Origin: a phage
Reading direction: 5' to 3' (one strand)
Length of the DNA stretch: 64,000 nt
Sequence record: PZ583743.1
Part shown: positions 2,901 to 56,698 of the stretch, piece after piece
How positions within the stretch are numbered: the stretch's first letter is position 1
Layout of the letters: each line of letters starts with the position of its first letter
Made by a program: the position numbers and the translations under genes
Notes under the pieces: model-generated
Told to the model about the DNA's origin: nothing
Seen by the model: only the letters and a program-made list of their open reading frames with translations
The model's database searches: none

Positions 2901-2930
2901 ATTATATACCATCCAAATCTTAAAGTAAAC
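2901..2930 (-). promoter_or_regulatory. Early promoter (minus: GTTTAC-18 nt-TATAAT) upstream of rnh
   Basis: Plus-strand attata...gtaaac; T4 early promoter consensus. Confidence 0.5.
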
Positions 2931-2975: not shown

Positions 2976-5900
2976 ATGGCCGAGATTAAAAGAAAGTTCA
3001 GAGCAGAAGATGGTCTGGACGCAGGTGGCGATAAAATAATCAATGTAGCTTTAGCTGATCGTACCGTAGGAACTGACGGTGTTAACGTTGATTACTTAAT
3101 TCAAGAAAACACAGTTCAACAATATGATCCAACTCGTGGATATTTAAAAGATTTTGTAATCATTTATAATAATCGTTTTTGGGCAGCAACGGATAATATT
3201 CCAAAACCTGCTGGAAGTTTTAATAGAATTCGTTGGAAAGCATTACGTACTGATGCCGTATATACAACCGTATCATCTGGACCATATCAATTAAAATCCG
3301 GAGAAGCAATTTCAGTAGATACATCAGTTGGTAATGACATTGAGTTTAATTTACCACCTTCTCCGCTTGATGGAGAAACCGTAATAATTCAAGATATTGG
3401 TGGAAAACCTGGTATAAATCAGGTTAAAATAAATTCTTCAAATCAGAGTATTGTTAATTTTAGAGGTGAACAAGTACGTTCAGTTCTAATGACTCATCCA
3501 AAGTCACAGATGATATTCATTTTTAATAATCGTTTGTGGCAAATGTATGTTGCTGATTATAGCAGAGAAGCTGCGATTGTTACTCCATCGACTGCATATC
3601 AAGCACAATCTAATGATTTTATCGTGCGTAGATTTACTTCCGCTGCGCCGATTAATATTAAACTTCCGAGATTTGCTAATCATGGCGATATTATTAATTT
3701 CGTTGATTTAGATAAATTAAATCCACTTTATCATACAATTGTCACGACATATGATGAAACAACTTCAGTACAAGAAGTTGGAACTCATTCTATTGAAGGC
3801 CGTACATCGATTGACGGTTTCTTGATGTTTGACGATAATGAAAAATTATGGAGATTGTTTGACGGGGATAGTAAAGCACGTTTACGCATTATAACAACTA
3901 ATTCTAATATTCGTCCAAATGAAGAAGTTATGGTATTTGGTGCGAATAACGGAACAGCCCAAACAATTGAACTTCAGCTTCCAACCGATATTTCCATTGG
4001 TGATACTGTTAAAATTTCCATGAATTACATGAGAAAAGGACAAACAGTTAAAATCAAAGCTGCCGGTGAAGATAAAATTGCTTCTTCAGTTCAATTGCTG
4101 CAATTCCCAAAACGCTCAGAATATCCACCTGAAGCTGAATGGGTGACTGTCCAAGAATTAGTTTTCAATGGTGAAACTAATTATGTTCCGGTTTTACAAC
4201 TTGCTTATATAGAAGATTCTGACGGAAAATACTGGGTTGTACAACAAAACGTTCCAACGGTTGAAAGAGTCGATTCTTTAAATAATTCTACTAGAGCAAG
4301 ATTAGGCGTAATTGCTTTAGCTACACAAGCTCAAGCTAACGTCGATTTAGAAAATTCTCCGCAAAAAGAATTAGCAATTACACCAGAAACATTAGCTAAC
4401 CGTACTGCTACAGAAACTCGTAGAGGTATCGCAAGAATAGCAACTACTGCTCAAGTAAATCAGAACACTACATTCTCTTTTGCAGATGACCTTATCATCA
4501 CTCCTAAAAAGCTGAATGAAAGAACTGCTACAGAAACTCGTAGAGGTGTTGCTGAAATTGCTACACAGCAAGAAACTAACGCAGGTACTGATGATACTAC
4601 AATCATCACTCCTAAAAAGCTTCAAGCTCGTCAAGGTTCTGAATCATTATCTGGTATTGTAACCTTTGTATCTACCGCAGGAGCTACTCCAGCTTCTAGT
4701 CGTGAATTAAATGGTACGAATGTTTATAATAAAAACACTAATAATTTAGTTGTTTCGCCTAAAGCTTTGGATCAGTATAAAGCTACTCCAACCCAACAAG
4801 GCGCAGTAATTTTAGCAGTTGAAAGTGAAGTAATTGCTGGACAAAGCCAAGAAGGATGGGCAAATGCGGTTGTAACGCCAGAAACGTTACATAAAAAGAC
4901 ATCAACTGATGCAAGAATTGGTTTAATTGAAATTGCTACACAAAGTGAAGTTAATACAGGAACTGACTATACTCGTGCAGTCACTCCTAAAACTTTAAAT
5001 GACCGTAGAGCAACTGAAAGTTTAAGTGGTATAGCTGAAATTGCTACACAAGTTGAATTCGACGCAGGCGTCGACGATACTCGTATCTCTACACCATTAA
5101 AAATTAAAACCAGATTTAATAGTACTGATCGTACTTCTGTTGTTGCTCTATCTGGATTAGTTGAATCAGGAACTCTCTGGGACCATTATACCCTTAATAT
5201 TCTTGAAGCAAATGAGACACAGCGTGGTACACTTCGTGTAGCTACACAAGTTGAAGCTGCTGCAGGAACATTGGATAATGTTCTAATAACTCCTAAAAAG
5301 CTTTTAGGTACTAAATCTACTGAAGCACAGGAAGGCGTTATTAAAGTTGCAACTCGGTCTGAAACTGTAGCTGGAACGTCAGCAAATACTGCTGTATCTC
5401 CAAAAAATTTAAAATGGATTGTGCAGAGTGAACCAACTTGGGCAGCAACTACTCTGATAAGAGGGTTTGTTAAAACTTCATCTGGTTCAATTACATTCGT
5501 TGGTAATGATACCGTTGGTTCAACGCAGTCATTAGAATCATATGAGAAAAATGGTTATGCAGTATCACCATATGAATTAAATCGCGTATTAGCAAATTAT
5601 TTGCCATTAAAAGCAAAAGCCGTAGATAGTAATTTATTAGATGGTCTAGATTCGCTCCAGTTCATTCGTAGGGACATTGCACAAACAGTTAATGGTTCAC
5701 TAACCTTAACGCAACAAACGAATCTGAGTGCCCCTCTTGTATCATCTAGTACTGCTACGTTTGGTGGATCAGTTTCGGCAAATAGTACATTAACTATTTC
5801 TAATACTGGAACGGCAACTCGTCTGATTTTTGAAAAAGGACCTCAAACTGGGACGAACCCAGCTCAAACGATGACAGTCAGAGTGTGGGGAAATCAATTC

Positions 5901-13430: not shown

Positions 13431-13583
13431 TCAATTAGTTGACTTTATTATAATATCATCAGACGCTTTATTTGTAAACTGGTCTGTGTTATTTTCTTCA
13501 AAAATTTTTTCTACGAATTCTTTGAACGACTCACGTTCCTGAGCTACATTATGCTCGATTACCTTTTCAAGATTATGACTCAT
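13431..13583 (-). CDS. Small ORF (50 aa) between arn and asiA, asiA.1-like
   Basis: Manual translation MSHNLEKVIEHNVAQERESF...; ATG overlaps arn stop (ATGA); below the ORF-track size cutoff. Confidence 0.5.
   Translation of the reverse strand: MSHNLEKVIEHNVAQERESFKEFVEKIFEENNTDQFTNKASDDIIIKSTN
13450..13479 (-). promoter_or_regulatory. Early promoter (GTTTAC-18-TATTAT) embedded in the asiA.1 ORF, directed at asiA
   Basis: Plus-strand ataata...gtaaac. Confidence 0.45.
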
Positions 13584-13941: not shown

Positions 13942-14160
13942 TTATGTTTTGCGACTAAATTGTTCATAGTGCTGAATTACCTCTCTTAAACATTTGCATG
14001 TGAATGAAAACTTTTTAGCTACACCACATTCAAATATATGTTCTCTTAAATCACGCGTGTCAGTATATCCCATCTCAACAATAAAATGCCGTATTAGATT
14101 TTTATCTTTATCGTTGAGGGAATTAAAATAATCGGATTTTGAATTAATTTCCCTGGCCAA
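13942..14160 (-). CDS. Hypothetical protein (72 aa), arn-motA interval
   Basis: ORF track; tight minus-strand packing. Confidence 0.5.
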   Translation of the reverse strand: MAREINSKSDYFNSLNDKDKNLIRHFIVEMGYTDTRDLREHIFECGVAKKFSFTCKCLREVIQHYEQFSRKT

Positions 14161-14440
14161 ATTGAATCACCTTCAGTTGACGTTTTAGTTCTTTTATCAT
14201 TTCTTCGTTCATCGCAATATAAAGATCACGTAAAGCAGGTTTTAGCATTCCATTTATTGGGGAACTAAATGGACATACATAATCTTTTCCTACGAGCTTT
14301 TTAGTTAATTCCATATCACAAAACTGAAATGCAGGTTCATTAGCATAAATTCCCCAATTAGTTGACATCATTTTATTGGCATATTCCAACGCCTGGATTT
14401 GATTAGTAATTCCATCAATTTGAAACTTTTTAATATTCAT
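14144..14440 (-). CDS. Hypothetical protein (98 aa)
   Basis: ORF track; start overlaps upstream ORF stop. Confidence 0.5.
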   Translation of the reverse strand: MNIKKFQIDGITNQIQALEYANKMMSTNWGIYANEPAFQFCDMELTKKLVGKDYVCPFSSPINGMLKPALRDLYIAMNEEMIKELKRQLKVIQFGQGN

Positions 14441-14901
14441 TAGTAAAGGTCCTCAGAGTAAAGTTCTTTTTCACTACCACCACGTTCAATACGTACTTGT
14501 CCAGCGTAAGTTGCAATAATCATTGCTTCTTCACGTGTCCAATAATTACTATATTGGTCAATAAACCCTTGATCACCATCACAAACTTGCTGAGTAACTA
14601 ATTGAGGTTTAACTACATCTAAAACTTCTGCCATATCTTTAGAATAATGACGAGCACCCGGAATAATAAGAGTTCGTCCATCTTTTAATTTAAAACGGTT
14701 GGCTGCGCAAACAATTCGTCGTTGATACTTTTGGTTTTCGTCCCAATATGCGGTCTGCCAACAGATTTCAGGAACTTCTTTTAGAATATCTTCTTCTGTG
14801 CATTTATAACCATGTGCTTTAAATTTTTCAACAAGACTTTCTGGAGTTTCACGAGATAAAGGAACATTCAACATTTTTAAACGATTAATAAATGGATTCA
14901 T
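14440..14901 (-). CDS. Hypothetical protein (153 aa)
   Basis: ORF track; overlapping stop/start with neighbours. Confidence 0.55.
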
Positions 14902-15227
14902 TTAAACCATCCTTTAATACGCTGCCACAAAGTTTTCTGCTGAGCTTTGTTAACACCAATTGAGCGAATAACTGGTTGAGATTCCTGGAATTCTTTATAA
15001 TCAGCAAGGTAAATTTCGTAAGCTGAATCTGTAAAGGAACTTATAGCTGCCATGAAATTATTGCGAATGCCTACTGGAGCATCTTTACTTTCACGAATAA
15101 TCATGTATTTGCCAGTCTTAATCTTTACGATAGTTCCAAGATAAGCTCCATGATACCAGATGTCCCACCCCTCTTGAGTGGGTTCTGCACAACGACGAAG
15201 TTCATTGATAATTTCTAACTTGTTCAT
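14898..15227 (-). CDS. Hypothetical protein (109 aa)
   Basis: ORF track. Confidence 0.5.
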
Positions 15228-15237
15228 TATTTATTCC

Positions 15238-15873
15238 TCACAGTTCAGATGCTACGGTGATTACAGCTTCAATGTTTTCTGCCGAGCGTTTAATGTCAAG
15301 ATACACATTACCGTTTTTAGCGATTTTACATGACATTCCGATATCAGTAAATTTCTGAATATGATGTTCCATCATTTTGTATCCAAAAATTCGCATATTT
15401 CCATTGTTGTTAATTTCAAAATTACGAATTCCGTGAGTGCGTTTTTCTAAAATAGCGAGATAGTTACTACGATAAGTTTCAATCTTTTTAAGAACAAATC
15501 CATTTTCATCTAAAAGTTTTAACATGAAGTCTTTATCTTCTTCCATATCAGAAGTAATTTCGCGAGCTTTACGTGTTGCTCGTTTTTTCAACAGTTCAGG
15601 AGCATTTTCCTGTGCGTATAAAGTTGCCGCATTTGAAATAATATCCTGAGCTTCACCAGTAATGATTAATCCATCACCAGATTTCTCCACCAGGCCTTTT
15701 TTAATCAATACCCCAATATTACTATTAACTACTGCATTACCTAAATCTGGATGCACCTCACGAACTTCTGCAGCTGTAATGAAATCTTTCTTAGCAATGG
15801 TAATTAAAATCGCAGCAGTTTTTTCATTCAGAACATCGTTAGAAGCTTTGATGATGTAAGTTACTTTAGACAT
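15238..15873 (-). CDS. motA: MotA middle-transcription activator
   Basis: 211 aa as in T4; N-terminus MSKVTYIIKASNDVLNEKTAAILITIAKKDFITAAEV. Confidence 0.9.
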   Translation of the reverse strand: MSKVTYIIKASNDVLNEKTAAILITIAKKDFITAAEVREVHPDLGNAVVNSNIGVLIKKGLVEKSGDGLIITGEAQDIISNAATLYAQENAPELLKKRATRKAREITSDMEEDKDFMLKLLDENGFVLKKIETYRSNYLAILEKRTHGIRNFEINNNGNMRIFGYKMMEHHIQKFTDIGMSCKIAKNGNVYLDIKRSAENIEAVITVASEL

Positions 15874-15913
15874 TTTCTAATCTCCGTAATTCTGTATCAG
15901 TAGTTGATAGTTG

Positions 15914-15944
15914 TATAGTACCACAGTATGCTTTGGTTGTAAAC
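15914..15944 (-). promoter_or_regulatory. Early promoter upstream of motA (GTTTAC ... GGTACTATAC)
   Basis: Plus-strand gtatagtacc...gtaaac; part of a repeated promoter cassette. Confidence 0.55.
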
Positions 15945-15968
15945 AGTTTTGTGAAAAAAATTTTGAAA

Positions 15969-15995
15969 TAAAAAAGGGAGAGCCTCAGCTCTCCC
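15969..15995 (-). terminator. Rho-independent terminator (GGGAGAGC-UGAG-GCUCUCCC + U6) downstream of the gene 52 operon
   Basis: Perfect 8-bp stem followed by a 6-nt U-run on the minus strand. Confidence 0.75.
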
Positions 15996-16000
15996 TAAAA

Positions 16001-16150
16001 TTACTGCATGACTGTGATAACTGTCATGATAACACGTTGAATGCCGAACGCAAGAAGACCTCCTGCTACGGCTGGAACAACACCTAGCCCCGCTAGTAAA
16101 ATGCCACCAGATACTAATGCCGCGCTTGTAATACCAATGAATGGACTCAT
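16001..16150 (-). CDS. Small hydrophobic membrane protein (49 aa) coupled to gene 52
   Basis: Manual translation MSPFIGITSAALVSGGILLAGLGVVPAVAGG...; ATG overlaps 52 stop (ATGA). Confidence 0.5.
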   Translation of the reverse strand: MSPFIGITSAALVSGGILLAGLGVVPAVAGGLLAFGIQRVIMTVITVMQ

Positions 16151-17475
16151 TTGATTTCCTCTAAATCTTTGGTGTATTCGGTAACTACATCAGTAGTTTT
16201 CCAATATTCGTTTTCTTCTTTTTTAGCTTTAGCTTCTTCAGCAAGTTTCTTTGCTTCATCGGAAGTCATATGAAAAATATTCATTCCGACTAGTTTATCA
16301 ACATAAGAAGAATACATATCAATTTTAGAAAGTTCTTCGGTCAGTTCTTTGCGAGTTTTACCCTGCACAACAATTTCACCTGAAATTACTTTCTTAATGA
16401 AATGTGCCTTGGCAAAGGCTAAACGAAATGCTGATTCAGTTTCTTTAATTTTGTTATCAATTCGTTTTTGGACGTAAGTTTTACGAACTTCAACAAAGTC
16501 TTTAATTAAATCAACTACGTTATCGTAAACTTGTAGCTTTCCTTTCTCATTAATGACTGTAATATTCTGAGAACGACGCTCAATCAACCCGAAGTCTTTC
16601 ATGATTTTTGCATGGCGTTCTTCTTCGTTATCACTCAAAGAGTATTCTTTGCGGAATTTAACTTTAAATCCAAAACCATGCTCACCGCAAGCATCATCCC
16701 ATGTAATGAAGCCTTTATCTTCAAGCGGGTCTAAGATTTTACTCACGTAAGTTTCACGATCATACTTATACGGAATTTCAGTGATATTCATTTGAGTTCG
16801 TGAAGTAAACTTGTACGTTCCACGAATTTCATATTGACCATCAATTTCAACGACTTCACCACGAAATTCTGGGAATTCTACCTTCGGTTTAGTTACTTTC
16901 TTTCCTTGAAGAGCTTGTAGTACAGCTTTCTTGACAGAAGAAACACTATGAGGAAGAATGTAAGTTGCATAACCAGTTGCAATACCGGAAACACCATTAA
17001 GAAGAACAGTAGGAATAATAGGCAAATAGAAAGCAGGAGGAATGTGTTCTTTATCTTGATGTACCGGAGCATATTCAGTATCTTTATATACGTTATAGAA
17101 ATTTTTACTTACGCGAGCAAAAATATAACGACTTGCTGCTGCTTTTTGGACGGTACGAGAACCAAAGTTTCCTTGGCCGTCTAACAAAGGAAAGTTATTA
17201 TTCCATGTGTTAGCCATCAAAGCCCCCGCATCTTGTGCAGAGTTTTCACCATGATGATATCCAAGGTCTGCTACACCACCTGCAATAGAAGCAAGTTTGT
17301 GAAACTTATCTTTATTTCCCCGTGCCAAATCAAGAGCTCGAGCAATAACAAATCGTTGAACTGGCTTAAATCCATCAATCATATTTGGAATAGCACGATT
17401 TTCAACCGTGTACATAGCATAAGCCAATGCTTCATTATCAATGATACTTTTTAAATCGCGATTATTCAGTTGCAT
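16147..17475 (-). CDS. 52: gp52 DNA topoisomerase II medium subunit (GyrA-like)
   Basis: 442 aa as in T4; N-terminus MQLNNRDLKSIIDNEALAYAMYTVENRAIPNMIDGFKPVQR. Confidence 0.9.
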   Translation of the reverse strand: MQLNNRDLKSIIDNEALAYAMYTVENRAIPNMIDGFKPVQRFVIARALDLARGNKDKFHKLASIAGGVADLGYHHGENSAQDAGALMANTWNNNFPLLDGQGNFGSRTVQKAAASRYIFARVSKNFYNVYKDTEYAPVHQDKEHIPPAFYLPIIPTVLLNGVSGIATGYATYILPHSVSSVKKAVLQALQGKKVTKPKVEFPEFRGEVVEIDGQYEIRGTYKFTSRTQMNITEIPYKYDRETYVSKILDPLEDKGFITWDDACGEHGFGFKVKFRKEYSLSDNEEERHAKIMKDFGLIERRSQNITVINEKGKLQVYDNVVDLIKDFVEVRKTYVQKRIDNKIKETESAFRLAFAKAHFIKKVISGEIVVQGKTRKELTEELSKIDMYSSYVDKLVGMNIFHMTSDEAKKLAEEAKAKKEENEYWKTTDVVTEYTKDLEEIK

Positions 17476-17479
17476 AAAT

Positions 17480-17620
17480 TTACCATACTAGTGAATGTAG
17501 TGCCATAATAACATCAGAAATGAAAAGCACGACTTGAATTAATCCGAACATTACTCCATAATATAGCGCTATCAATAAAATAGCAAGGGCTACCGAGTAG
17601 CCCAAGATTTTCTTAATCAT
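17480..17620 (-). CDS. Small membrane protein (46 aa), 52.1-like
   Basis: Manual translation MIKKILGYSVALAILLIALYYGVMFGLIQVV... Confidence 0.45.
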   Translation of the reverse strand: MIKKILGYSVALAILLIALYYGVMFGLIQVVLFISDVIMALHSLVW

Positions 17621-17771
17621 TAGTAGATAACAACACAAATGTTAAATATGCACACATACCCTGGGCTAAAGCTTGTGAAAACACACTGCTAGCATCGATA
17701 CAGATAGTTAAAACACATGCTACTATCCAACAAATAAATGAAATAACTCCTAATAATTTTGCAATATTCAT
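17613..17771 (-). CDS. ac: Ac-like small membrane protein (52 aa)
   Basis: Manual translation MNIAKLLGVISFICWIVACVLTICIDASS...; position between stp and 52 as in T4. Confidence 0.5.
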   Translation of the reverse strand: MNIAKLLGVISFICWIVACVLTICIDASSVFSQALAQGMCAYLTFVLLSTND

Positions 17772-17778
17772 ATTTTCC

Positions 17779-17859
17779 TCACTGGCGTCCGAAGACGCCT
17801 TTAGTTTTAAGATTGTTACGATAGAACTGCATCACGTGTTCGTTATGGAAATTACTCAT
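17779..17859 (-). CDS. stp: Stp peptide (26 aa)
   Basis: Manual translation [26 protein letters not shown]; ATG overlaps ndd stop (TAATG). Confidence 0.8.
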
Positions 17860-18314
17860 TAATATGCCTGCAAAACAAATTTAAAGTTATCAGCCAACAT
17901 ACGGTTCATTTCTTCAAGTGTTTGATACTCAGAATGATGATTACGAGTAAACGCTAAAGCTAACTGACCTTTTCCAAATCCCGTCGTCAGAGGTTTCATC
18001 TTAGAAGCAGGTAGATAAAATACTGTGTATGGAACATTGTTATTTGCAATAGTACGCGCGAGCTGGGACCGACGCTGACGAATATGACTTAGAACTGCAC
18101 TGAATCCTTGCTTAGAACGCTGATTACCTACATAAAATCGCGCAGATACACACGGACTATCAAATGGACCACCAAATTTGCTCACTAAAAAGTAAAATCC
18201 AGGGTTAGACAAAATGTCTTTATGCGGAGTTCCAAAAACCCATTCACCGCCCTTGATTGTACCAATAACAGTTGCGCCTGCATTATTCAGATCAGTAACA
18301 GTCATGTATTTCAT
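17859..18314 (-). CDS. ndd: Ndd nucleoid disruption protein
   Basis: 151 aa as in T4; synteny. Confidence 0.8.
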
Positions 18315-18373
18315 ATTGATTTCCTCTAATTATTTTCTACTCCAAGGCCGTATGTATTCATACGGCTGTTAAA

Positions 18374-18589
18374 TTAATCGTCGCAGTCGACACTTAATTC
18401 CCAGAATTCTTCTACAGTATAAGTTTCAGTATCATTTTCAATACAGAAACGTTCATTACTGTTATTTGCTAAAGTAGCGTTAACTGTCATTTTCTCGCTA
18501 GTACTCTTAAGAGGTGAAATACGAATTAACTGATCACCATTATCTAAGCAAAAAATTTCACCGACCTTTACATCTTTAAAAATTTTCAT
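18374..18589 (-). CDS. Hypothetical protein (71 aa), ndd-denB interval
   Basis: ORF track. Confidence 0.45.
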   Translation of the reverse strand: MKIFKDVKVGEIFCLDNGDQLIRISPLKSTSEKMTVNATLANNSNERFCIENDTETYTVEEFWELSVDCDD

Positions 18590-18704
18590 AATTCACCTCA
18601 GGGAGTATAAAATCCAAATGCAGTTGTTGACCATCCCATCCAATATGGGAAATTTGCACCAATGTAAAACATAAGAATATAAAACCAACCACTCAGCAAA
18701 TTCA

Positions 18705-18923
18705 TCATTTTACACCATTCCAAATTGTTTCAACCACAGATTTTAAACCATTTTGGTGAATATCCATTCCGACAACCGCCATCAAATAGATTCCAACCAC
18801 AACTGACCCCAAGGCGAAAATCAGCATGAAAATGAATAAAGCAGGAAAAATATTATCAAAAAACCATTCCATAAATGTAAAAGCACTGCGTTTACGCTTC
18901 ATATTTTCCTCACATAAATCCAA
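18705..18923 (-). CDS. Small membrane protein (72 aa or shorter from internal MKRKRS start)
   Basis: ORF track; hydrophobic core FPALFIFMLIFALGSVVVGIYLMAVVG. Confidence 0.45.
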   Translation of the reverse strand: MDLCEENMKRKRSAFTFMEWFFDNIFPALFIFMLIFALGSVVVGIYLMAVVGMDIHQNGLKSVVETIWNGVK

Positions 18924-19298
18924 AGTAAGCGTTTAATACATCAATCATTAAAACGATTGGGAATATACTTAAAACTACTAGTATTATAACTACATTCCAT
19001 ATAGCTTTAACAATCTTTTTCATTTTCTATTCCTCCGTAGTTGATAGAGTAATAATACCACAGAGGAACAGTCTTGTAAACAACTTTTTTAAAAATATTC
19101 GTAATAAATGTGAATACCAATCACCACTGCCGAAACTTGTGCAACCCACCACGCACAAGCAATAAGCACAGAATTAAAAATTTTCATAATAACCTCATCA
19201 CAAAAGTAAATGTTAAACAAATTAATGGAATACTAATTAACCAAACGAAACACCACCATAATGAACTCATAGTTCAATCTCAACGATTTTCATTTTAC

Positions 19299-19517
19299 TC
19301 AATAATCCGCTAAAAGATCGACGATTGCATCACGAAGACACTTATTCGCAATACGTTTAAGAGCAATTTCAGTTTCTGGAGCATTTTGAATAATCATTGA
19401 ATTCAATTCAGCCTCAGCAAACTGAAGTTCTTTAACTAATTCAGCTTTATATTTTCCTTGCCCTTTCTTAGCTTTTGCTCGTTTTAATTCAGCTGTAGTA
19501 AACATTTTATTCTCCAA
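19299..19517 (-). CDS. Hypothetical protein (72 aa)
   Basis: ORF track; early promoter immediately upstream. Confidence 0.45.
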   Translation of the reverse strand: MENKMFTTAELKRAKAKKGQGKYKAELVKELQFAEAELNSMIIQNAPETEIALKRIANKCLRDAIVDLLADY

Positions 19518-19539
19518 ATCCGTATCAGTTGATAGTTGT

Positions 19540-19570
19540 ATAGTACCACAGTCCTTGTGGTATGTAAACC
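19540..19570 (-). promoter_or_regulatory. Early promoter (repeated cassette)
   Basis: Plus-strand gtatagtacc...gtaaac. Confidence 0.55.
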
Positions 19571-19586
19571 GTTTTGTGAAAATTTT

Positions 19587-20144
19587 TTAAATGGAAAGAT
19601 ACCATCCGTTGTAGTTGCTTTTTCTTACAACCTTACGAAGGTCTTCTCTATCACCGATGAACTTCGGAGTGTACTGGATGACACCTGGATGAATTTCTTT
19701 AGTGTTGAATATAATTATACAGTCAGCGACTTGGTGATTCAGAATGGGCCCTAGATTTATTCCAGAACCGTATGGATACTCCCCGCTGCATCCGGTTGTT
19801 ACCGAAATCCAACGTGAGTCAGTTTGATGTGTTTTGACTTCTACACGAAGCCCACAGTATTTTGGATGCGCCAATACATCCCATGCGTAAGTATACGGGT
19901 CATTAACATCCTCTTGGCCTTTGTTAACATATCCGCTTAGCCAATCTGCTACAAAAAATTCTGCGTACACAGCGATACGGCATCTTTCAATAACTTCTGC
20001 TTTATCCTGATTAGGATTTTGTTTTAAAGAGTATCTTGCTGTATCAGCAATTTTGACCTTCATTTCACTAGTCAAATCATTGTTCGATAGGGTAAATGTC
20101 GGAATCTGAAATAGTCTCTGTAAACCTGGATTCGTTTTCTGCAT
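19587..20144 (-). CDS. denB: DenB endonuclease IV
   Basis: 185 aa as in T4; synteny next to rIIB. Confidence 0.8.
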   Translation of the reverse strand: MQKTNPGLQRLFQIPTFTLSNNDLTSEMKVKIADTARYSLKQNPNQDKAEVIERCRIAVYAEFFVADWLSGYVNKGQEDVNDPYTYAWDVLAHPKYCGLRVEVKTHQTDSRWISVTTGCSGEYPYGSGINLGPILNHQVADCIIIFNTKEIHPGVIQYTPKFIGDREDLRKVVRKSNYNGWYLSI

Positions 20145-20230
20145 TAAACTTTCCTTTTACGTCGGAATCACTGATATTCATATAATAAATCATAGTTTCC
20201 CTTAAAACAAAAGGGCCGAAGCCCTTTATT

Positions 20231-20425
20231 TTATTTGAATTGTGCAATTCTTTTCTCTAAACAATCTGCGTAAGATTTCATTGAGATAAACTGCGAAAGC
20301 AGCAGTTCTTGCTCAACTGCATTAACCATTGAAAACTTTTCACTTTCTAAAAATTTGCTCAGTGCATTAATTTTGAGCATTAATTGATCGTATTCTTCTT
20401 TTACTCGTGCTTGATAACCTAACAT
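20231..20425 (-). CDS. Hypothetical protein (64 aa from ATG at 20425), denB.1-like
   Basis: ORF-track frame; internal ATG with SD GAGGAAAA avoids overlap with rIIB. Confidence 0.45.
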   Translation of the reverse strand: MLGYQARVKEEYDQLMLKINALSKFLESEKFSMVNAVEQELLLSQFISMKSYADCLEKRIAQFK

Positions 20426-20453
20426 AATTTTCCTCAGTAATGGGCCGAAGCCC

Positions 20454-21392
20454 TTATTTAAATTGTTCAGTAACGTCTTCAACTACTTCGTATTGACAGG
20501 TACGCATTTTAGCATCGTTGTAATCAATCGGAATTGATACTACATCACGCGGATGTACTTTAACTTTTACAACTCGGCTGGTTGAACTACCAAAGTGACG
20601 AATATAAGATTTAGAACACACATGCAGACCACGAGAACAAGTTTGTGTATCATCGTCATTCACACGAGTACGTGGCATTTTAACTACTTTACCAGGGCTG
20701 TTATCAAAAGTATTTGAATGACAGTCAAAGTAATTGCTGCGAACTACTTTCCAAGCATAGAAGTAGCCGTCTTCTGTAATTTCAATATCGTTTGCTACCA
20801 AGAAATCAAAGAGTCGAGATACTGCTTTTTGGCTTGGGTTTTCCAGCAGATTTTCCAGGAACGGAAAATAAAATTCAAAGTTTTCGCCTTTTTCCATCGA
20901 ATCGAGAATACGATCAACTAAACCAGACCGCAATTCAATGTTTTGATAGAACAAGCTTCCACCTTCAATTCGAACATCACCCGAAATATATTTTTCAACA
21001 GCGCGACGAACGTTAATTTTTTGTGCCGCTTCTTCTAATTTATCTGCAACAAGCAGGTTAAGAATTTCCTGGAAGTTTGAATGAGTATTAGGAGTTGCGT
21101 TATAAGTTACGCCGTCAACAGTAATTGAAATGAATTTTTTAGATGCATTCCAAATAATGTCAGATTTAGCAACTGGAGCAATAGCTACATCACTCTTAAC
21201 TTCAACTGTAATGTCACCGCTAATGGTAACTTTAGAGCGTTCAGCTTCTTTAGCATTTTTCAAAACACGACGGATTGTGTCAACCGATACACCTTGCCAA
21301 TCAGCCAATTCCTGTTGGGTATAATTACCGCTTGAATACAGTTTAACAATTTCAGCTTGTTCGTTTTTGGTCAGGCATTTAATATTGTACAT
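20454..21392 (-). CDS. rIIB: rIIB
   Basis: 312 aa as in T4; N-terminus MYNIKCLTKNEQAEIVKLYSSGNYTQQELADWQG. Confidence 0.9.
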   Translation of the reverse strand: MYNIKCLTKNEQAEIVKLYSSGNYTQQELADWQGVSVDTIRRVLKNAKEAERSKVTISGDITVEVKSDVAIAPVAKSDIIWNASKKFISITVDGVTYNATPNTHSNFQEILNLLVADKLEEAAQKINVRRAVEKYISGDVRIEGGSLFYQNIELRSGLVDRILDSMEKGENFEFYFPFLENLLENPSQKAVSRLFDFLVANDIEITEDGYFYAWKVVRSNYFDCHSNTFDNSPGKVVKMPRTRVNDDDTQTCSRGLHVCSKSYIRHFGSSTSRVVKVKVHPRDVVSIPIDYNDAKMRTCQYEVVEDVTEQFK

Positions 21393-23820: not shown

Positions 23821-23850
23821 ATTATACCACATCCTTGTGGTAAAGTAAAC
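23821..23850 (-). promoter_or_regulatory. Early promoter (GTTTAC-18-TATAAT) upstream of rIIA.1 and rIIA
   Basis: Plus-strand attata...gtaaac. Confidence 0.55.
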
Positions 23851-25670
23851 TACTGGCTCATCCATTCTTTACGAAGGTCAGCATTATCTCCCATGAGCAT
23901 TTCAAAAAGCTCTTTCCAGTTCTCAGGAAGTTTAACAACATCATATACTGGGTTTTGAATCATCTCACGATATTCAGATTTTTCCAAAGAGCCAAGTCCT
24001 TTAATATAACGGATGCTATGTTTAGGTAGAGCATCTTTGGCACTCTCATATTCAGCGACTGTATAAAACCATTCTTGTTTTTTACCGACCTGAGCGATGA
24101 TTACAGGAGTTTTGACAAAGCGAATTCTTCCTTGTTCAAACAGTTCTGGCCAATTACTAAAAAATCCGAGCAGAGAAGGATAAATGCTTCCTAGACCATC
24201 ATGGTCAGCATCAGTCATAATAGCAATATTATGATAATTCAAGTTTTCAGCTTTTTCACCGAGAACTAATCCAGTGATTGCGCAAATATCAAACAGTTCT
24301 TTGTTTTTAAGCATGTCAGCATATGACATGCCCCAACTGTTGAGAACTTTACCACGTAATGGATAACCACCGTGAAGTTCTTTATCACGAACATCAATAA
24401 GATATCCGATAGCCGAATCACCCTCAGTCAAGAAAAGAGTAGTATCAGCATCTTTACCACAAAGATTCGCTTTAATATGTTTATGAACCTTAGCTTTAGA
24501 AGCCTTTTTAGCTGCTTTAGTTTCTGCTGCTTTTTCTGCCGCTAATTTACGAGCCAAAGCAGCTTCAATAATCGGCATTAGAATTGCTTCATTATTTAGA
24601 ATAGCACGTGAAATCTTTTTAGCATCAAGTTGAATATGACTACGGATTTCACCAAATGGAGAAGTCAAACGCTCTTTAGTTTGAGAATCAAATCGCATGT
24701 TTTTCATATCACGGACAAACATAACGATAGTCAAACATTCTTTAACGCGTGCTTTAGTCACATCAATTTTGAACTTACGTTTGATTTGTGGAATAAGGTC
24801 TTCACAAATATCATCCATAACACAGTCAATGTGATGGCCACCATTCTTAGTGTGAATGTTATTCACATAAGTTAATTGACGAAAACCATCCGGTGAACGA
24901 CCAACCGCAATAGAGCAATTTTCTTGTTCTTGAACGATAGCATGCTCATCATATTGACGTGCATATTTCTTAAAATTGCCCTGAACCTTTTTACCATTAA
25001 AGGTAAATTGAATATCAGGATAAACTACTGCAAGTGTCTGGAGACGATCTAGTGTAATGTCAAGATAAACTTGAGATAGCTCATTAGTTTCAAATGACAT
25101 AAAATCAGGAATGAAAGTAACACGAGTTCCTTTCCATTTTCCAGGAATAGTTTCCCATGATTTATTTTCCATGCCATTTGAACAACGAACTACAATATTA
25201 TTTTGACCATCGCCAGTTTCACCGACAAACATCACAGAAAAAATGTTAGTTAAACTAGAACCAACACCGTTCATACCGCCGGTGACGCGTTCTTTATCAT
25301 CACCAAAGTTACCACCTGCTTTTGGAATAGTCCATGCAGCAACAGGACCAGGAATTTCTTCACCAGTAGGTGTTTTAACCATCGCCTGTGGAATACCGCG
25401 ACCGTTATCTTCAACTGTTACTTGATTGTTTTTGATAGTAACATTAATTTTATTTGCGAATTTAAACTTAGTACGAATACCTTCATCTACTGAGTTATCG
25501 ATAATTTCATCAATAAGCTTAACAAGACCAGGTACATACTGAACACTTTCCCATTTACCAAACAGAAAGCGCTCATGCATTTCATTAGCGGAAGAGCCAA
25601 TGTACATGCCGCTACGCTTTTTGATATGTTCAATATCGCTCAGAATTTTAATTTCATTCTTAATCATCAC
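23850..25670 (-). CDS. 39: gp39 DNA topoisomerase II large subunit (GyrB-like), uninterrupted form
   Basis: 606 aa; GHKL ATPase and Toprim-like motifs; T4 splits this into 39 plus 60, T2-type is a single ~605-aa gene. Confidence 0.9.
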   Translation of the reverse strand: MMIKNEIKILSDIEHIKKRSGMYIGSSANEMHERFLFGKWESVQYVPGLVKLIDEIIDNSVDEGIRTKFKFANKINVTIKNNQVTVEDNGRGIPQAMVKTPTGEEIPGPVAAWTIPKAGGNFGDDKERVTGGMNGVGSSLTNIFSVMFVGETGDGQNNIVVRCSNGMENKSWETIPGKWKGTRVTFIPDFMSFETNELSQVYLDITLDRLQTLAVVYPDIQFTFNGKKVQGNFKKYARQYDEHAIVQEQENCSIAVGRSPDGFRQLTYVNNIHTKNGGHHIDCVMDDICEDLIPQIKRKFKIDVTKARVKECLTIVMFVRDMKNMRFDSQTKERLTSPFGEIRSHIQLDAKKISRAILNNEAILMPIIEAALARKLAAEKAAETKAAKKASKAKVHKHIKANLCGKDADTTLFLTEGDSAIGYLIDVRDKELHGGYPLRGKVLNSWGMSYADMLKNKELFDICAITGLVLGEKAENLNYHNIAIMTDADHDGLGSIYPSLLGFFSNWPELFEQGRIRFVKTPVIIAQVGKKQEWFYTVAEYESAKDALPKHSIRYIKGLGSLEKSEYREMIQNPVYDVVKLPENWKELFEMLMGDNADLRKEWMSQ

Positions 25671-25720
25671 TTATCCTCGTTTGGTTTCGGGAATATTATA
25701 CTCCGGTAATCATAAAGCTA

Positions 25721-25736
25721 AAGGCCCGAAGGCCTT
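25721..25736 (-). repeat. C(UUCG)G-type hairpin (AAGGCC-UUCG-GGCCUU)
   Basis: Read directly; one of a family of intercistronic UUCG stem-loops. Confidence 0.6.
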
Positions 25737-26006
25737 TTATTTAAAACGGATAGTCGAATCCTTAAAGAACAGCCCAGAACATACTGTTCCTTCTACTTTC
25801 TGCCCAGTAGGTCCAATAGCACGAAATCCAGTATGTTGGAAATCATTTTCAGAACAACCGAACCAGTTATATCCAGTGATTTCAATATTAGTAAAACCGC
25901 TTGAAGACAAAACTTTGGTTGCATTATCAGCATCAGTACATCCTACTAAAGACACTGCTAATACTAATGCTGCGATAGAACGATTAATATATTTCATAGT
26001 TTTCAC
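25737..26006 (-). CDS. Putative lipoprotein (89 aa)
   Basis: Signal peptide and lipobox LVGC near N-terminus. Confidence 0.55.
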   Translation of the reverse strand: MKTMKYINRSIAALVLAVSLVGCTDADNATKVLSSSGFTNIEITGYNWFGCSENDFQHTGFRAIGPTGQKVEGTVCSGLFFKDSTIRFK

Positions 26007-26374
26007 TTAAATTTAATGGCTTGAAGGAGACTAATAATTCTCAAGCGACTTCTTTCATCTTTAACTGTAAATGAAAGAGGGTCACCAGATTTCATAGTGA
26101 TAGTGCATTCAAAATCAAAATCTTCTGTAACTTCTTCGAAGAAGTCAAATTCTTCATCATAAATTAGAACATTACTCTGAAAGCTGTGAAGAATTTTTCC
26201 GTCATTTCCAGATGCTGTACTAATCATTGTAACATTATTACCTTTCATATCTTCAACGATAAATTCGCTTGTAGATATTACATTACTAATAGAACCATTC
26301 CTATAAATAGCAGAAAATAGATATTTCTTTTCTTCACCTTCGCGAATGCGATATTTCTTACCGATTTTAAACAT
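26003..26374 (-). CDS. Hypothetical protein (123 aa)
   Basis: ORF track. Confidence 0.5.
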   Translation of the reverse strand: MFKIGKKYRIREGEEKKYLFSAIYRNGSISNVISTSEFIVEDMKGNNVTMISTASGNDGKILHSFQSNVLIYDEEFDFFEEVTEDFDFECTITMKSGDPLSFTVKDERSRLRIISLLQAIKFK

Positions 26375-26969: not shown

Positions 26970-27184
26970 TAATAAATTTCCTTCCAGTAAGTTGTACCAT
27001 CTTCAGTGATTTCACGAAATACACCGTAAATTGGTTGTTTATCCCCAACCTTTTCATACACATAAACCGAAGTCAAGTGAGTAAACTTAGCAGTGTGTTC
27101 CTTTTGAACTACTACCAAATCTGGATCGAATAACACATCTTCAAATTCGTCATTAGTGCAGTTCTGAACAATTTTACGTTTCAT
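26969..27184 (-). CDS. Hypothetical protein (71 aa), possibly cef-like
   Basis: ORF track; size matches T4 cef. Confidence 0.45.
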
Positions 27185-27356
27185 TACAATTTCCTCGTTA
27201 ATTGAACATTGGAGCGATGCGTTTCAGAAGAGTAGCAGCACCTTTGGCAAATTTTCCATTTTATTCTCCAAATTATTTTCTATATCAGTAGTTGATATTG
27301 ATATAGTACCATAATCAACTACTGATGTATATAGTTTTATGAAAAAATTTTAAACT

Positions 27357-27848
27357 TTATGCATAGCGAGCTTTGCTGTAGTGTTTAATCCAACTTTCAG
27401 GAATGACTTTGTATGTTCCTAAAAATACCGCGTTGTATAACTTAACGCCATCTTCTACCCATTGATCAGTAATGTATGCACACATAGCGCGAGTACGCCG
27501 AGGAAGTGGTTGTCCACCTTCGATAAATTCAAACTCATAAGGAGCAATGAACTTGATAGCTCGACCGAGTTTCCACTTAAAGTCTACACCTACATGCGAA
27601 GTATCAATCGTTTCAATTCCTTTAGCGGGAACAGCTTTCAAAAACGCAGATTCAAGAAATTTCGCGCGAACATAACCAAACTGAGGTTTAGACTTTCCAT
27701 CTTTAGGAATGATACGCACTTTTACTTCAGAATCTTCATCTTTAACGCCGTGTTTAAGCTGAATGCTTACAATTTCGACCAATTTTCCTGCTGCTTTAGA
27801 ACGGGATTTATCAGATACACGAGCAATTTCACCAATATTAATAATCAT
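27357..27848 (-). CDS. motB: MotB-like protein (163 aa)
   Basis: Size and position match T4 MotB (162 aa). Confidence 0.6.
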   Translation of the reverse strand: MIINIGEIARVSDKSRSKAAGKLVEIVSIQLKHGVKDEDSEVKVRIIPKDGKSKPQFGYVRAKFLESAFLKAVPAKGIETIDTSHVGVDFKWKLGRAIKFIAPYEFEFIEGGQPLPRRTRAMCAYITDQWVEDGVKLYNAVFLGTYKVIPESWIKHYSKARYA

Positions 27849-27892: not shown

Positions 27893-27922
27893 ATTATACT
27901 CTGGTCCCAAGAGTTTGTAAAC
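27893..27922 (-). promoter_or_regulatory. Early promoter (GTTTAC-18-TATAAT) upstream of motB
   Basis: Plus-strand attata...gtaaac. Confidence 0.55.
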
Positions 27923-28472: not shown

Positions 28473-29012
28473 TTATCTCATTTCAATAAAATCTACAAGT
28501 TCAGCATGGGATTTACGGAACATTACTTGATGCCCGCCAACGATAACTTGGTCATCTGGTACTTCGTATACAGCAAGATAAAATCCTTTCGAAGCTAATT
28601 CTTCACGCTCTTCTCGTGTGAACCATCTCATCATATCATATTCGCTAGCGAAAGCAAAATGATAAAGAGCTATAAACCATCCTGGAATATGATATTCTAC
28701 TCCAACATAATCTTTCTTGAACTTAGTATTAATTACTATATTAGCGTTTTTAACTAATAGTTTATCTTCGTGTGGTAAAGGAATTCTTTTATTATTATCG
28801 CTATGATGCATAAAATTAGGTCTGTCATAACCTACGTGTAATAGCCACTCTTCGCTCCATGAATCTATTATACTCCTGTACGGCGTTATTTGAACACAAA
28901 GATTTCGACGTATTGTTATAGCATCTTCATAATCAAGAATACTAAACGATGATTCAACACGATAAATTTTCATTTTATTATCCTCAGTAGCTACGGTGTT
29001 ATAATACCACAA
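28473..29012 (-). CDS. Hypothetical protein (179 aa)
   Basis: ORF track; early promoter upstream. Confidence 0.5.
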   Translation of the reverse strand: MWYYNTVATEDNKMKIYRVESSFSILDYEDAITIRRNLCVQITPYRSIIDSWSEEWLLHVGYDRPNFMHHSDNNKRIPLPHEDKLLVKNANIVINTKFKKDYVGVEYHIPGWFIALYHFAFASEYDMMRWFTREEREELASKGFYLAVYEVPDDQVIVGGHQVMFRKSHAELVDFIEMR

Positions 29013-29036
29013 CTAACCGAGGAAGTAAACAACTTT

Positions 29037-32610: not shown

Positions 32611-32647
32611 ACGGGTTAACTACTTATACTATAACATTTTTACTTCA
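32611..32647 (-). promoter_or_regulatory. Early promoter upstream of srd
   Basis: Plus-strand tatactataac...gtaaac. Confidence 0.45.
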
Positions 32648-32713
32648 GCTTGTAAACAACTTTATGAAAAATGCTTTAAAACTTTCATGGTATAATGAAT
32701 CTAAGTCCTTCCA

Positions 32714-33961: not shown

Positions 33962-33992
33962 TATCATATCATCGTTAGAAAGGAAAGTAAAC
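33962..33992 (-). promoter_or_regulatory. Early promoter upstream of modB
   Basis: Plus-strand ...gtaaac with upstream -10-like element. Confidence 0.4.
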
Positions 33993-36067: not shown

Positions 36068-36097
36068 ATTATACCATACTCATTTTGGAAAGTAAAC
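36068..36097 (-). promoter_or_regulatory. Early promoter (GTTTAC-18-TATAAT)
   Basis: Plus-strand attata...gtaaac. Confidence 0.55.
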
Positions 36098-38746: not shown

Positions 38747-38777
38747 TTATAATACCATAACAAGCTGAGAAAGTAAA
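38747..38777 (-). promoter_or_regulatory. Early promoter upstream of the 186-aa ORF / dam operon
   Basis: Plus-strand ataatacc...gtaaac. Confidence 0.45.
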
Positions 38778-38822
38778 CAAATTTATGAAATTTGTGATAA
38801 ATATTAATTTAAAGGAGGACAT

Positions 38823-41162: not shown

Positions 41163-41194
41163 ATATAGTATCTCAATTTCCAATAAAAGTAAAC
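41163..41194 (-). promoter_or_regulatory. Early promoter upstream of sp
   Basis: Plus-strand tatatagta...gtaaac. Confidence 0.45.
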
Positions 41195-41666: not shown

Positions 41667-41697
41667 TACTATACCATAGTCTTGTCAGCTTGTAAAC
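41667..41697 (-). promoter_or_regulatory. Early promoter upstream of dmd
   Basis: Plus-strand ctataccat...gtaaac. Confidence 0.4.
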
Positions 41698-46721: not shown

Positions 46722-47102
46722 TCACTTAGTCAAATTTTTTACACATGAATTATAAGAATTTACTACATACTCCATCGGAGCATTTTTACCAGTACGCCAT
46801 TGATAATTATTAGCCCAATTTGCCCAAAGTTCAGCGCAGTAGTTTTCAATTTTTTCTTCGCGTGTAATTACATCCGAATTACGATATGCTTGAGCAGATT
46901 CATCTGGACGAATAGCCTCGTCAAAATTCGCCTGCATTTGTTCTACTGTCTGTTTTGGAGCTTCTTTATAACACTTGACATTAGGATTATAAAATTTGCT
47001 TGAACAGTTTACAATTTTTCCTACATCAGACTGATTTACTACCGGTCCTTGAGCTACACAGCCAGTAAGACCCAATGCAATAACCAAAATAGCGATTTTC
47101 AT
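46722..47102 (-). CDS. Putative lipoprotein (126 aa from ATG at 47102)
   Basis: MKIAILVIALGLTGC signal peptide and lipobox; ORF-track start is further upstream. Confidence 0.55.
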   Translation of the reverse strand: MKIAILVIALGLTGCVAQGPVVNQSDVGKIVNCSSKFYNPNVKCYKEAPKQTVEQMQANFDEAIRPDESAQAYRNSDVITREEKIENYCAELWANWANNYQWRTGKNAPMEYVVNSYNSCVKNLTK

Positions 47103-47134
47103 TTCATTCTCCAAATCCGCATCAGTTGATAGTT

Positions 47135-47164
47135 GTATAGTACCATAGAAGAACAGTCTTGTAA
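47135..47164 (-). promoter_or_regulatory. Early promoter (repeated cassette)
   Basis: Plus-strand gtatagtacc...gtaaac. Confidence 0.55.
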
Positions 47165-47248
47165 ACAGTTTTGTGAAAAAATTTTTAATGAATTCCAGGG
47201 GTCCAGAAACATCTGTTTTTCCTAAGTATAGATTTATATTACTTGTAT

Positions 47249-47270
47249 GAAAAAGGGACCCGGAGGTCCC
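47249..47270 (-). terminator. Rho-independent terminator after gene 43 (GGGACC-UCCG-GGUCCC + U-run)
   Basis: Read directly; 13 nt downstream of gene 43 stop. Confidence 0.7.
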
Positions 47271-47283
47271 TAGATTTATTCTA

Positions 47284-50018: not shown

Positions 50019-50040
50019 TGATATATTATACTCCAAATAA

Positions 50041-50054
50041 GGGGCCGAAGCCCC
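50041..50054 (-). repeat. C(UUCG)G hairpin (GGGGC-UUCG-GCCCC) after regA
   Basis: Read directly. Confidence 0.6.
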
Positions 50055-50059
50055 TTTGC

Positions 50060-50428
50060 TTAATTACCAATCGTATATTTAGGAACGAGTTTCCATTCAT
50101 GTTTTTGCTTAAAAGAAATAACTCGGAAGTTATTAGTTAAGTCTTTCATAAAAGTTCTTTGACCGGGAGCGATTTCAATCAGTCCCCAATCTTCTAACAG
50201 CCATGCAATCGAATCACGACGAACTTCATCTTCTTCTGTCATTTCAACCTGGCGACCATCCATACGAAGCATTTCTTTAAAATGAACGATATAGTATAGT
50301 CCTTTTTTCTGGAGAATATGACAGGATTGATACAGAACTTTATCTTTATTATTAGCAATTCCCATACGAGTCAAAGTTTCTTTAACTTTCAGAAAATCTT
50401 CAGGTTTTTTAAGAGTAATTTCAATCAT
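50060..50428 (-). CDS. regA: RegA translational repressor
   Basis: 122 aa as in T4; N-terminus MIEITLKKPEDFLKVKETLTRMGIANNKDKVLYQSCHIL. Confidence 0.9.
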   Translation of the reverse strand: MIEITLKKPEDFLKVKETLTRMGIANNKDKVLYQSCHILQKKGLYYIVHFKEMLRMDGRQVEMTEEDEVRRDSIAWLLEDWGLIEIAPGQRTFMKDLTNNFRVISFKQKHEWKLVPKYTIGN

Positions 50429-51954: not shown

Positions 51955-51988
51955 AATTTCCTCATTCAAGTTTTAGTGTAAATTATAA

Positions 51989-52002
51989 AGGGCCGAAGCC
52001 CT
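51989..52002 (-). repeat. C(UUCG)G hairpin between 45 and 44
   Basis: agggccgaagccct read directly. Confidence 0.6.
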
Positions 52003-52005
52003 CTA

Positions 52006-52692
52006 TTAAAAATCGTGGGTAGAATCAGCTTCAAGAGCTACTACATAATTCGCATGTTCACCTTCAAATTTAGCAGCGCCTTGTTTACCTTTTGCCCAGA
52101 GCAGAAGTTTATAATTTCCTGGTTGCATTTTCATATTTGCCATATTGATAATGAAATTAAATGTATTTTCACCATCATAATCACCAAGAGTCAAAGAATA
52201 TTTAACACGGGTCAGAGCAGAATCTTCTACTTTATTAAAACCGTTAATTACGATTTTACCTTCTTTTACCGTGATAGCAATTGTATCAATTTGCAGACCA
52301 CGAGATACACGCAACAGTTGTTGAAGGTCTTCAGCTTTAATTTCAGTAACAACAGATGCTACTGGGAATGGAATTGGTTTATTAGGAGCAACTACTGTAC
52401 TCGGATCAGCTGCTGGCCAAAAAATTGTTGAACGAGCATCAGCAATTTTAATATTTCCATCTTCTGACTGGGAAATTTCTGCATCATCATTAACTAGAGA
52501 CAGAATACCGAGAAAACCGTTCAAATCGTAAATTGCTACATCAAAATCAATAGTGTCAGAAATATTTGCTTCTGCATAAGTTGTACCATTAACCGCGCGA
52601 GTCATAATAAATTGACCGGATTTAAGCATAATACCGGAGTTAATAGTAGCGAAATTTTTAAGCAGAGCAGTAGTATCTTTAGACAGTTTCAT
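52006..52692 (-). CDS. 45: gp45 sliding clamp
   Basis: 228 aa as in T4; N-terminus MKLSKDTTALLKNFATINSGIML. Confidence 0.9.
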   Translation of the reverse strand: MKLSKDTTALLKNFATINSGIMLKSGQFIMTRAVNGTTYAEANISDTIDFDVAIYDLNGFLGILSLVNDDAEISQSEDGNIKIADARSTIFWPAADPSTVVAPNKPIPFPVASVVTEIKAEDLQQLLRVSRGLQIDTIAITVKEGKIVINGFNKVEDSALTRVKYSLTLGDYDGENTFNFIINMANMKMQPGNYKLLLWAKGKQGAAKFEGEHANYVVALEADSTHDF

Positions 52693-56673: not shown

Positions 56674-56698
56674 TATATCAAACTCCGTATAAAGCTAA

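Follow-up and report, generated by a model that had tools for sequence, protein, structure and literature searches.

Early promoters and expression cassettes of T4-like phages

The early promoters of phage T4 (Pe class) are reportedly those treated by Liebig and Rueger in 1989 and by Miller et al. in 2003. They have been characterized as "uber" promoters, in which UP, -35, TGn and -10 elements are combined with extra consensus positions (Hinton 2010, PMC2988021), and the promoter-early stem-loop (PeSL) consensus of PST/T4 reads TTTACW-N17-TAYWAT (Comeau et al. 2014, PMC4122927). PeSL cassettes were defined in RB49 and phi1 (Arbiol et al. 2010, PMC2839356), and the PeSL minicircles excised from RB49 have their crossovers between the -10 and the ATG (PMC2839356). 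The idea was later extended to PST and T4, the worked example being the exchange of ndd.4/.5 beside denB (Fig. 6A in PMC4122927). Both the promoters and the local gain and loss of genes at the edges of such cassettes are thus already known from the PeSL literature (PMC2839356, PMC4122927).

Two further systems bear on the sequences described here. The RegB/S1 endonuclease system recognizes strong sites with the consensus GG*AGRAYARAA (Uzan & Miller 2010, PMC3014915), and T4 undergoes UvsX-dependent deletions at minihomologies of 3-13 nt (Wu et al. 2021, PMC8262927). In what follows, the T4 literature is the source for promoter activity, for the start site and for the RegB consensus.

The phage and the analysed window

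The DNA examined (PZ583743.1; 64,000 nt, the whole of which is called the window) belongs to a Tequatrovirus (T4/T2-like) that is about 97 % identical to known isolates. Megablast of positions 14000-20000 and 40000-64000 gave 96-98 % identity to hundreds of Tequatrovirus genomes, the relatives found being T4-like phages of Escherichia, Shigella and Yersinia. The T4 gene order is kept (holin t, asiA, arn, motA, 52, ac, ndd, denB, rIIB, rIIA, 39, ..., 43, 45, 46, 47, 55, nrdD), all early genes of the window are carried by the minus strand, and a window position corresponds approximately to the T4 coordinate + 21392. The T4 RefSeq record is without annotated promoter features.

A few other properties of the window were observed in passing. 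Gene 39 is unbroken as one ORF at 23850-25670, whereas in T4 it is split as 39/mobA/60, and with T4 as the reference the window is devoid of the segF, segA, mobB and mobC homing-endonuclease insertions. Positions 4404-5302 hold short direct repeats of 41 nt and 29 nt (three copies each, 63-83 % identical), the gene in question probably being a tail-fibre gene. Another repeat family reads GGGC-UUCG-GCCC on the coding (minus) strand and is found at 20203-20232, 20439-20467, 25713-25742, 50032-50061, 51980-52009, 56690-56719 and 60331-60360; presumably it represents the classic intergenic C(UUCG)G tetraloop hairpin of T4.

A family of predicted early promoters on the minus strand

The pattern GTTTAC-N18-TAnnnT occurs at 17 exact sites in the window, where 0.97 would be expected by chance, and 17/17 lie on the minus strand. 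If the conventional hexamer TTTACA is taken as the -35, the spacer assumes its canonical length of 17 bp, and a sigma-70 scan indeed reported TTTACA-17-TACTAT for two of the cassettes described below (copies 2 and 3). An SD followed by an ATG is found after each of the 17 sites and after copy 4, usually 25-45 nt past the -10. The minus-strand GTTTAC, 18-nt spacer, -10 and conserved leader that an earlier note on this DNA had pointed out can accordingly be read, from their sequence, as putative T4-type early promoters, and the five "related versions" that it listed (19031-19090, 23821-23850, 27893-27922, 36068-36097 and 61191-61232) all fall within the 17-site set.

In comparison, a scan for generic sigma-70 hexamers revealed no enrichment in this AT-rich window (79 found vs 82 expected). 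Significance is limited to the family-specific extended patterns and does not apply to generic sigma-70 hexamers. For example, the -35/UP block GTAAACNGTTTTGTGAAAA was found three times exactly and seven times with at most three mismatches in a search of the window (0.28 expected). Ahead of the -35, the AAAAATTTTTTCACAAAAC block represents the A/T-rich UP element, and TGG precedes the -10 in 4/4 copies of the subfamily and in most family members. The genes downstream are co-oriented early genes: motA, the ndd region, cef and imm.1/imm. For annotation purposes, the 17 sites can serve as reliable early-promoter calls for this genome. Apart from copies 1 to 3, which are listed in the next section, the following minus-strand elements were recorded:

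2901-2930, minus strand: early promoter core, GTTTAC-N18-TATAAT
13450-13479, minus strand: early promoter core, asiA downstream
19052-19081, minus strand: related early promoter core, ndd.4-like ORF downstream, with a spacer (AAGACTGTTCCTCTG) similar to the one in copy 3
23821-23850, minus strand: early promoter core, rIIA.1/rIIA downstream
27893-27922, minus strand: early promoter core, motB downstream
29001-29030, minus strand: early promoter core
32628-32657, minus strand: early promoter core
33963-33992, minus strand: early promoter core
36068-36097, minus strand: early promoter core with a hairpin ahead
38749-38778, minus strand: early promoter core; indel boundaries of T4 and BW-1 (38791, 38812) lie inside its UP region
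41165-41194, minus strand: early promoter core
41668-41697, minus strand: early promoter core
60747-60776, minus strand: weaker candidate, within coding sequence and with a long leader
61192-61221, minus strand: early promoter core with the UP block TTTTCACAAAG

A subfamily of four cassettes

Three copies of a more extended cassette are present at about 15885-15960, 19515-19585 and 47110-47185, as originally noticed, and a repeat finder added a fourth (27278-27351) that had escaped the earlier note. The family is real, but to call its members near-identical is too strong, since pairwise identity within the subfamily is 64-77 % over 73 ungapped nt. The similarity nevertheless extends well beyond the hexamers, other promoter pairs having a median identity of 47 % and random 73-mers of 27 %. 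The longest exact runs common to subfamily copies measure 23-26 nt. Within the leader block, the 20-mer TTGATAGTTGTATAGTACCA has exactly three exact copies plus one with three mismatches at 27292-27311 (0.02 expected), and the 22-mer TGGTACTATACAACTATCAACT occurs four times vs 0.00 expected.

The identity is not spread evenly. It sits in two blocks, one comprising the UP element and the -35, the other the TGG/-10 and the leader, and the spacer divides them. The 15-nt spacers are no closer to each other in the subfamily than in unrelated promoters (similarity of 0.37 vs 0.33), whereas over the 18 nt past the -10 subfamily members agree at 78 % of positions and other promoter pairs at 35 %. The four copies are laid out as follows:

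15871-15996, minus strand: copy 1, the motA promoter cassette, with an intrinsic terminator hairpin (15975-15996), an A/T-rich UP and the -35 GTTTAC (15939-15944)
Copy 1, continued, minus strand: TGG and -10 TACTAT (15915-15920), predicted start at ~15908, leader with GGAGATTAGAA, motA ATG (15871-15873)
19503-19614, minus strand: copy 2, flanked by denB and the ndd.x genes, with -35 (19564-19569), -10 (19540-19545) and predicted start at ~19533
Copy 2, continued, minus strand: SD GGAGAATAAAA (19505-19515), ATG (19503-19505) of a 68-aa ORF
47100-47271, minus strand: copy 3, following the DNA polymerase gene (43), with a terminator hairpin (47254-47271), -35 (47161-47166) and -10 (47137-47142)
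Copy 3, continued, minus strand: predicted start at 47130, SD GGAGAATGAAA, ATG (47100-47102) of an imm.1-like lipoprotein ORF (46722-47102)
27257-27377, minus strand: copy 4, between motB and cef, with a degenerate -35 ATATAC (27327-27332) and -10 TACTAT (27303-27308)
Copy 4, continued, minus strand: SD GGAGAATAAAA (27259-27269), ATG (27257-27259) opening only an 11-aa remnant ORF

An upstream stem-loop is found in only two of the four copies, namely copies 1 (15975-15996) and 3 (47254-47271). Copies 2 and 4 are without it, their UP region adjoining the end of the upstream gene; in copy 2 it overlaps the 3' end of denB. The ATATAC of copy 4 fails as a Pe -35, and this copy may be inactive as a promoter.

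Copy 4 has a further peculiarity (27252-27335, minus strand): its spacer ATCAGTAGTTGAT and its leader ATCAACTACTGAT are exact reverse complements of each other. The two stretches make a strong hairpin with the -10 in its loop (-21.1 kcal/mol, z = -5.3). The inverted-repeat layout is conserved at the same locus in T4 (L004 6588-6640), T2, BW-1 and SG1. The hairpin may be a processing or stability element in the read-through motB RNA, or else the relic of a templated quasi-palindrome mutation.

Leader, ribosome-binding site and predicted RegB site

The leaders are 28-35 nt long and end in GGAGAATAAAA (copies 2 and 4), GGAGAATGAAA (copy 3) or GGAGATTAGAA (copy 1). Folding of the leaders yielded no conserved RNA structure, the energies of 0 to -3 kcal/mol being no better than those of shuffled sequences. 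The ribosome-binding site GGAGAATAAAA matches GGAGRAYARAA exactly and has no occurrence in the window other than those of copies 2 and 4; the sites of copies 1 and 3 each deviate from the RegB/S1 consensus by one mismatch. Given this match to the strong-site consensus, the cassette probably supplies expression that is switched on at once and off within minutes. Judged by its sequence, it would combine a very strong immediate-early promoter and an open translation-initiation region with a predicted RegB site, at which expression is probably shut off.

Orthologues in T4 and predicted start sites

T4 has the same four cassettes, at motA, denB/ndd.6, motB/cef and 43/imm.1. Their occupation of orthologous loci indicates that the copies are old and conserved and did not arise by recent duplication in the present genome. 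The copy 1 cassette, for example, is nearly the same ahead of T4 motA, with two substitutions, both upstream of the -35. The region transcribed from Pe26.4 starts at T4 map unit 27,044 according to a T4 transcriptome and primer-extension paper. This position is an A, 7 nt after the -10 (T4 27,051-27,056) of the copy 3 orthologue, which is Pe26.4. By homology, starts are predicted in the window at ~15908, 19533 and 47130. Promoter activity in this phage is thus suggested by orthology and consensus.

In T4, the identity between copies 2 and 3 continues through the first 12 coding nt, ATGAAAATCGCT. A separate observation concerns the 18-mer AATGAAATGAAAATCGCT, which forms the imm.1 translation start at copy 3 (47091-47108) and recurs at the copy 2 locus of the relative G50 (L001 6770-6800). 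Taken together, the 12 coding nt in T4 and the 18-mer in G50 argue for descent by duplication and not for convergence alone.

Gene conversion or concerted evolution between copies was also considered, on the basis of an ACT/ACTACT indel in the leader. Both copies 2 and 3 have the short form in the window and both the long form in T4, but BW-1 and one IMG/VR contig are discordant. Across the genomes compared (the window, T4, BW-1 and the IMG/VR contig) there is no covariation between the two copies, and this discordance leaves gene conversion or concerted evolution unsupported.

Gene-sized indels at the cassette edge

In relatives, three of the subfamily copies (2, 3 and 4) have ORF-sized indels that adjoin the start codon and lie between 6-8-nt repeats:

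19291-19509, minus strand: gene-sized indel module adjoining copy 2 on its 3' side, containing the 68-aa ORF (19299-19505, phrog_4535) that is absent from T4
47089-47102, minus strand: insertion point at the copy 3 start codon, where relatives have an extra ORF of ~85 aa with the repeat ATGAAAAT flanking it
27250-27259, minus strand: junction of a 208-bp deletion, directly after the ATGG of copy 4

In the comparison of endpoints among relatives, which the earlier note had suggested, indel endpoints lie at the ATG of copies 2, 3 and 4, and no deletion or duplication between distant copies was found in more than 500 genomes.

The copy 2 module is bounded by the direct repeat TAAAATG (19503-19509 and 19291-19297), one repeat being the cassette's own SD-ATG. 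The arrangement of the window is kept in 115/508 relatives. It is this same ndd/denB locus that PMC4122927 compares between PST and T4 (Fig. 6A). With respect to the 68-aa (phrog_4535) and 87-aa (phrog_2390) ORFs, all four states, {68}, {87}, {68,87} and {none}, are seen among the window, G50, BW-1, SG1 and T4, and every junction at this locus reads ..AAATG/ (the slash marking the junction). The MKIVEIEL frame that follows the 68-aa ORF (19268-19294) is what remains of the C-terminus of the 87-aa ORF that G50 and BW-1 contain. SG1 has a leader of another type downstream of the -10, so that an exchange point falls within the cassette, past the -10 and ahead of the SD.

At the imm.1 start, behind copy 3, the extra ~85-aa ORF (phrog_4189) is present in ZN18, BW-1, SG1 and about half of the relatives among the matches listed. 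Behind copy 4, an 89-aa ORF (phrog_3720) is still intact in T2 and many relatives; in the window and in T4 the 208-bp deletion leaves an 11-aa remnant of it. The cargo ORFs as a whole belong to five different PHROG families. In a scan of T4-like contigs in IMG/VR, the -10/leader 21-mer was found upstream of at least eight different genes, with up to six copies per genome, and UP, spacer and leader occur in differing combinations, i.e., the cassettes are mosaic. Some of these contigs (loci L010, L018 and L024) contain 5-6 exact -10/leader 21-mers, several of them within 3.5 kb, in the region just past the window's right end. This region would be a better test bed for cassette-cassette recombination than the loci of the window.

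In comparisons with T4, BW-1 and SG1, about 3 of about 25 indel boundaries lie inside promoter cassettes vs about 1 expected; this enrichment is not significant (P ~0.07 by our own Poisson estimate, in which intergenic location is not controlled for). Most indels in the window are away from promoters. Of the remaining boundaries, most belong to homing-endonuclease insertions or to ORF swaps with no promoter nearby. Each of the indels at copies 2, 3 and 4 has a cassette on one side only.

Nature of the cassettes and origin of the indels

The repeats are very probably sigma-70 early promoters of the T4 type, four of which form a subfamily that acts as a set of portable expression modules. The sequence family, the strand bias, the orthology, the indel junctions and the mosaicism are observations of the present analysis. 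Host RNA polymerase would fire these promoters immediately after infection. Their proposed layout consists of an A/T-rich UP, a -35 (G)TTTAC(A), a 17-bp spacer, a TGn -10 (TGGTAyTAT) and, ~28-35 nt on, the SD-ATG. The four paralogous copies, ahead of motA, the first gene after denB, imm.1 and cef, share two blocks, the first being UP/-35; the second begins at TGG/-10, takes in the unstructured leader and ends with the ribosome-binding site GGAG(A)AUAAAA. Over evolutionary time, small ORFs of unassigned function would enter or leave directly behind the SD-ATG by way of 6-8-nt repeats (..AAATG/AAA..), and the same -10/leader block stands ahead of many unrelated genes in other T4-like phages. As to the mechanism of the indels, we infer UvsX-dependent minihomology or short-homology recombination.

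The subfamily may further be viewed as an "expression socket", in which accessory ORFs are preferentially captured and lost at AAATG/AAA via UvsX-dependent minihomology. The four states of the 68-aa and 87-aa ORFs mean that, under the socket reading, the copy 2 locus behaves like a two-slot gene array. If true, the socket would amount to integron-like gene capture without an integrase, which sharpens the PeSL hypothesis and creates no new category. We put this forward tentatively and consider it rather doubtful.

The strongest competitor attributes the indels to generic microhomology at the AAATGAAA-type starts of many T4 genes, the adjacency of promoters then resulting from expression and retention only. 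As the repeats found at the junctions (AAATG, ATGAAAAT) are generic to translation starts in T4, the promoter part may be irrelevant to the mechanism; the association of indels with cassettes may reflect the survival of those ORFs that landed behind a strong promoter. In line with this, each indel has a cassette at one junction only, with either a plain SD-ATG or else an internal AAATG at the other, further ORF indels in the window have no nearby promoter (e.g., 25998-26372 and 59491-59745), and the 6-8-nt repeats fall in the 3-13-nt range of the T4 minihomology deletions (PMC8262927). However, an indel exactly at the ATG is seen in 3/4 subfamily copies vs roughly 1/10 of gene starts (a rough count), and the SG1 exchange point lies between the -10 and the SD, inside the cassette, like those of the RB49 minicircles. 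On balance, generic microhomology is a serious possibility that we nonetheless lean against.

Pure functional convergence, in which selection for RNA polymerase binding, escape, translation initiation and RegB cleavage would have fixed the same bases with no role in recombination and no history of it, is unlikely. It would account well for the fact that the conserved blocks are known recognition elements (UP, -35, TGn/-10, SD and RegB site) and that the spacers between them are no closer than in unrelated promoters (0.37 vs 0.33), and it agrees with the stable orthology of every copy in T4 and with the location of the majority of window indels away from promoters. It does not readily explain the similarity in positions without known function (18 nt past the -10, 78 % vs 35 %), the match between the spacer of copy 3 and that of the promoter at 19081, the identity of T4 copies 2 and 3 through 12 coding nt (ATGAAAATCGCT), the 18-mer AATGAAATGAAAATCGCT common to the G50 copy 2 locus and the imm.1 start, or the presence of the same block ahead of at least eight unrelated genes.

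The earlier note had proposed that direct repeats of 40-60 bp might seed deletions or duplications over tens of kb. The copies are indeed direct repeats in the same orientation, but uninterrupted identity reaches just 23-26 nt. Synthetic junction queries against the matching phage records covered two predicted deletions (copy 1 x copy 2 and copy 2 x copy 4) and one duplication (copies 1 and 2), and the junctions were found in 0 of 508-672 records. Between copies 2 and 3 lie the replication genes 61, 41 and uvsX; together with 42, these are the genes located in the intervals from copy 2 to copy 3 and from copy 4 to copy 3 that we take to be needed for T4 growth. Duplications of tens of kb would exceed the headful capacity of T4. 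Large deletions or duplications (3.6 kb, 7.7 kb, 20-31 kb) by homologous recombination between distant copies are therefore very improbable: T4 recombines very actively and short homology can suffice (PMC8262927), and deletions flanked by short repeats are documented in non-essential T4 regions (Homyk & Weil and Mosig, as cited in PMC8262927), but an exact identity of at most 26 nt is under the ~50 nt cited for classical recombination (PMC8262927). What survives of the recombination-substrate claim is local, namely the indels at the edge of copies 2, 3 and 4 and the mosaic cassettes, and not deletions or duplications between distant copies.

Comparison with known systems

As T4-type early promoters that behave as portable modules, the cassettes illustrate the immediate-early launch of T4-like phages and the shuffling of accessory genes in hyperplastic regions, both of which have already been published. 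The present analysis adds the junctions at base level, the 6-8-nt repeats at the SD-ATG edge and the four states of the two-ORF denB/ndd array, as well as the absence, in more than 500 genomes, of long-range deletions or duplications between copies.

With the Pe promoters of T4, the cassettes have in common the UP, the -35 GTTTAC, the 17-bp spacer, the TGn -10, the orientation towards early genes and the loci. Nothing substantive sets them apart: the window comes from another Tequatrovirus isolate, which at some loci resembles T2 in its gene content, and the -35 of copy 4 is degenerate. The likeness to RegB/S1 targets consists in the exact consensus at copies 2 and 4 and in the unstructured leader of an early transcript, for which cleavage is predicted; however, the consensus explains just the last ~11 nt of the conserved leader. 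As in the UvsX-dependent minihomology deletions, the indels lie between 6-8-nt direct repeats and one repeat is retained, although in the T4 experiment the deletions were selected after CRISPR cuts.

Finally, the cassettes differ from PeSLs in that only 2/4 subfamily copies have an upstream stem-loop, and in that the window indels described here have a cassette on one side only and involve 6-8-nt repeats instead of two flanking PeSLs recombining with each other. Nevertheless, they share with PeSLs a multi-copy early promoter with the SD-ATG at the 3' end of the conserved motif, ORF insertions or deletions that distinguish close relatives, and exchange points located in the stretch from the -10 to the ATG.
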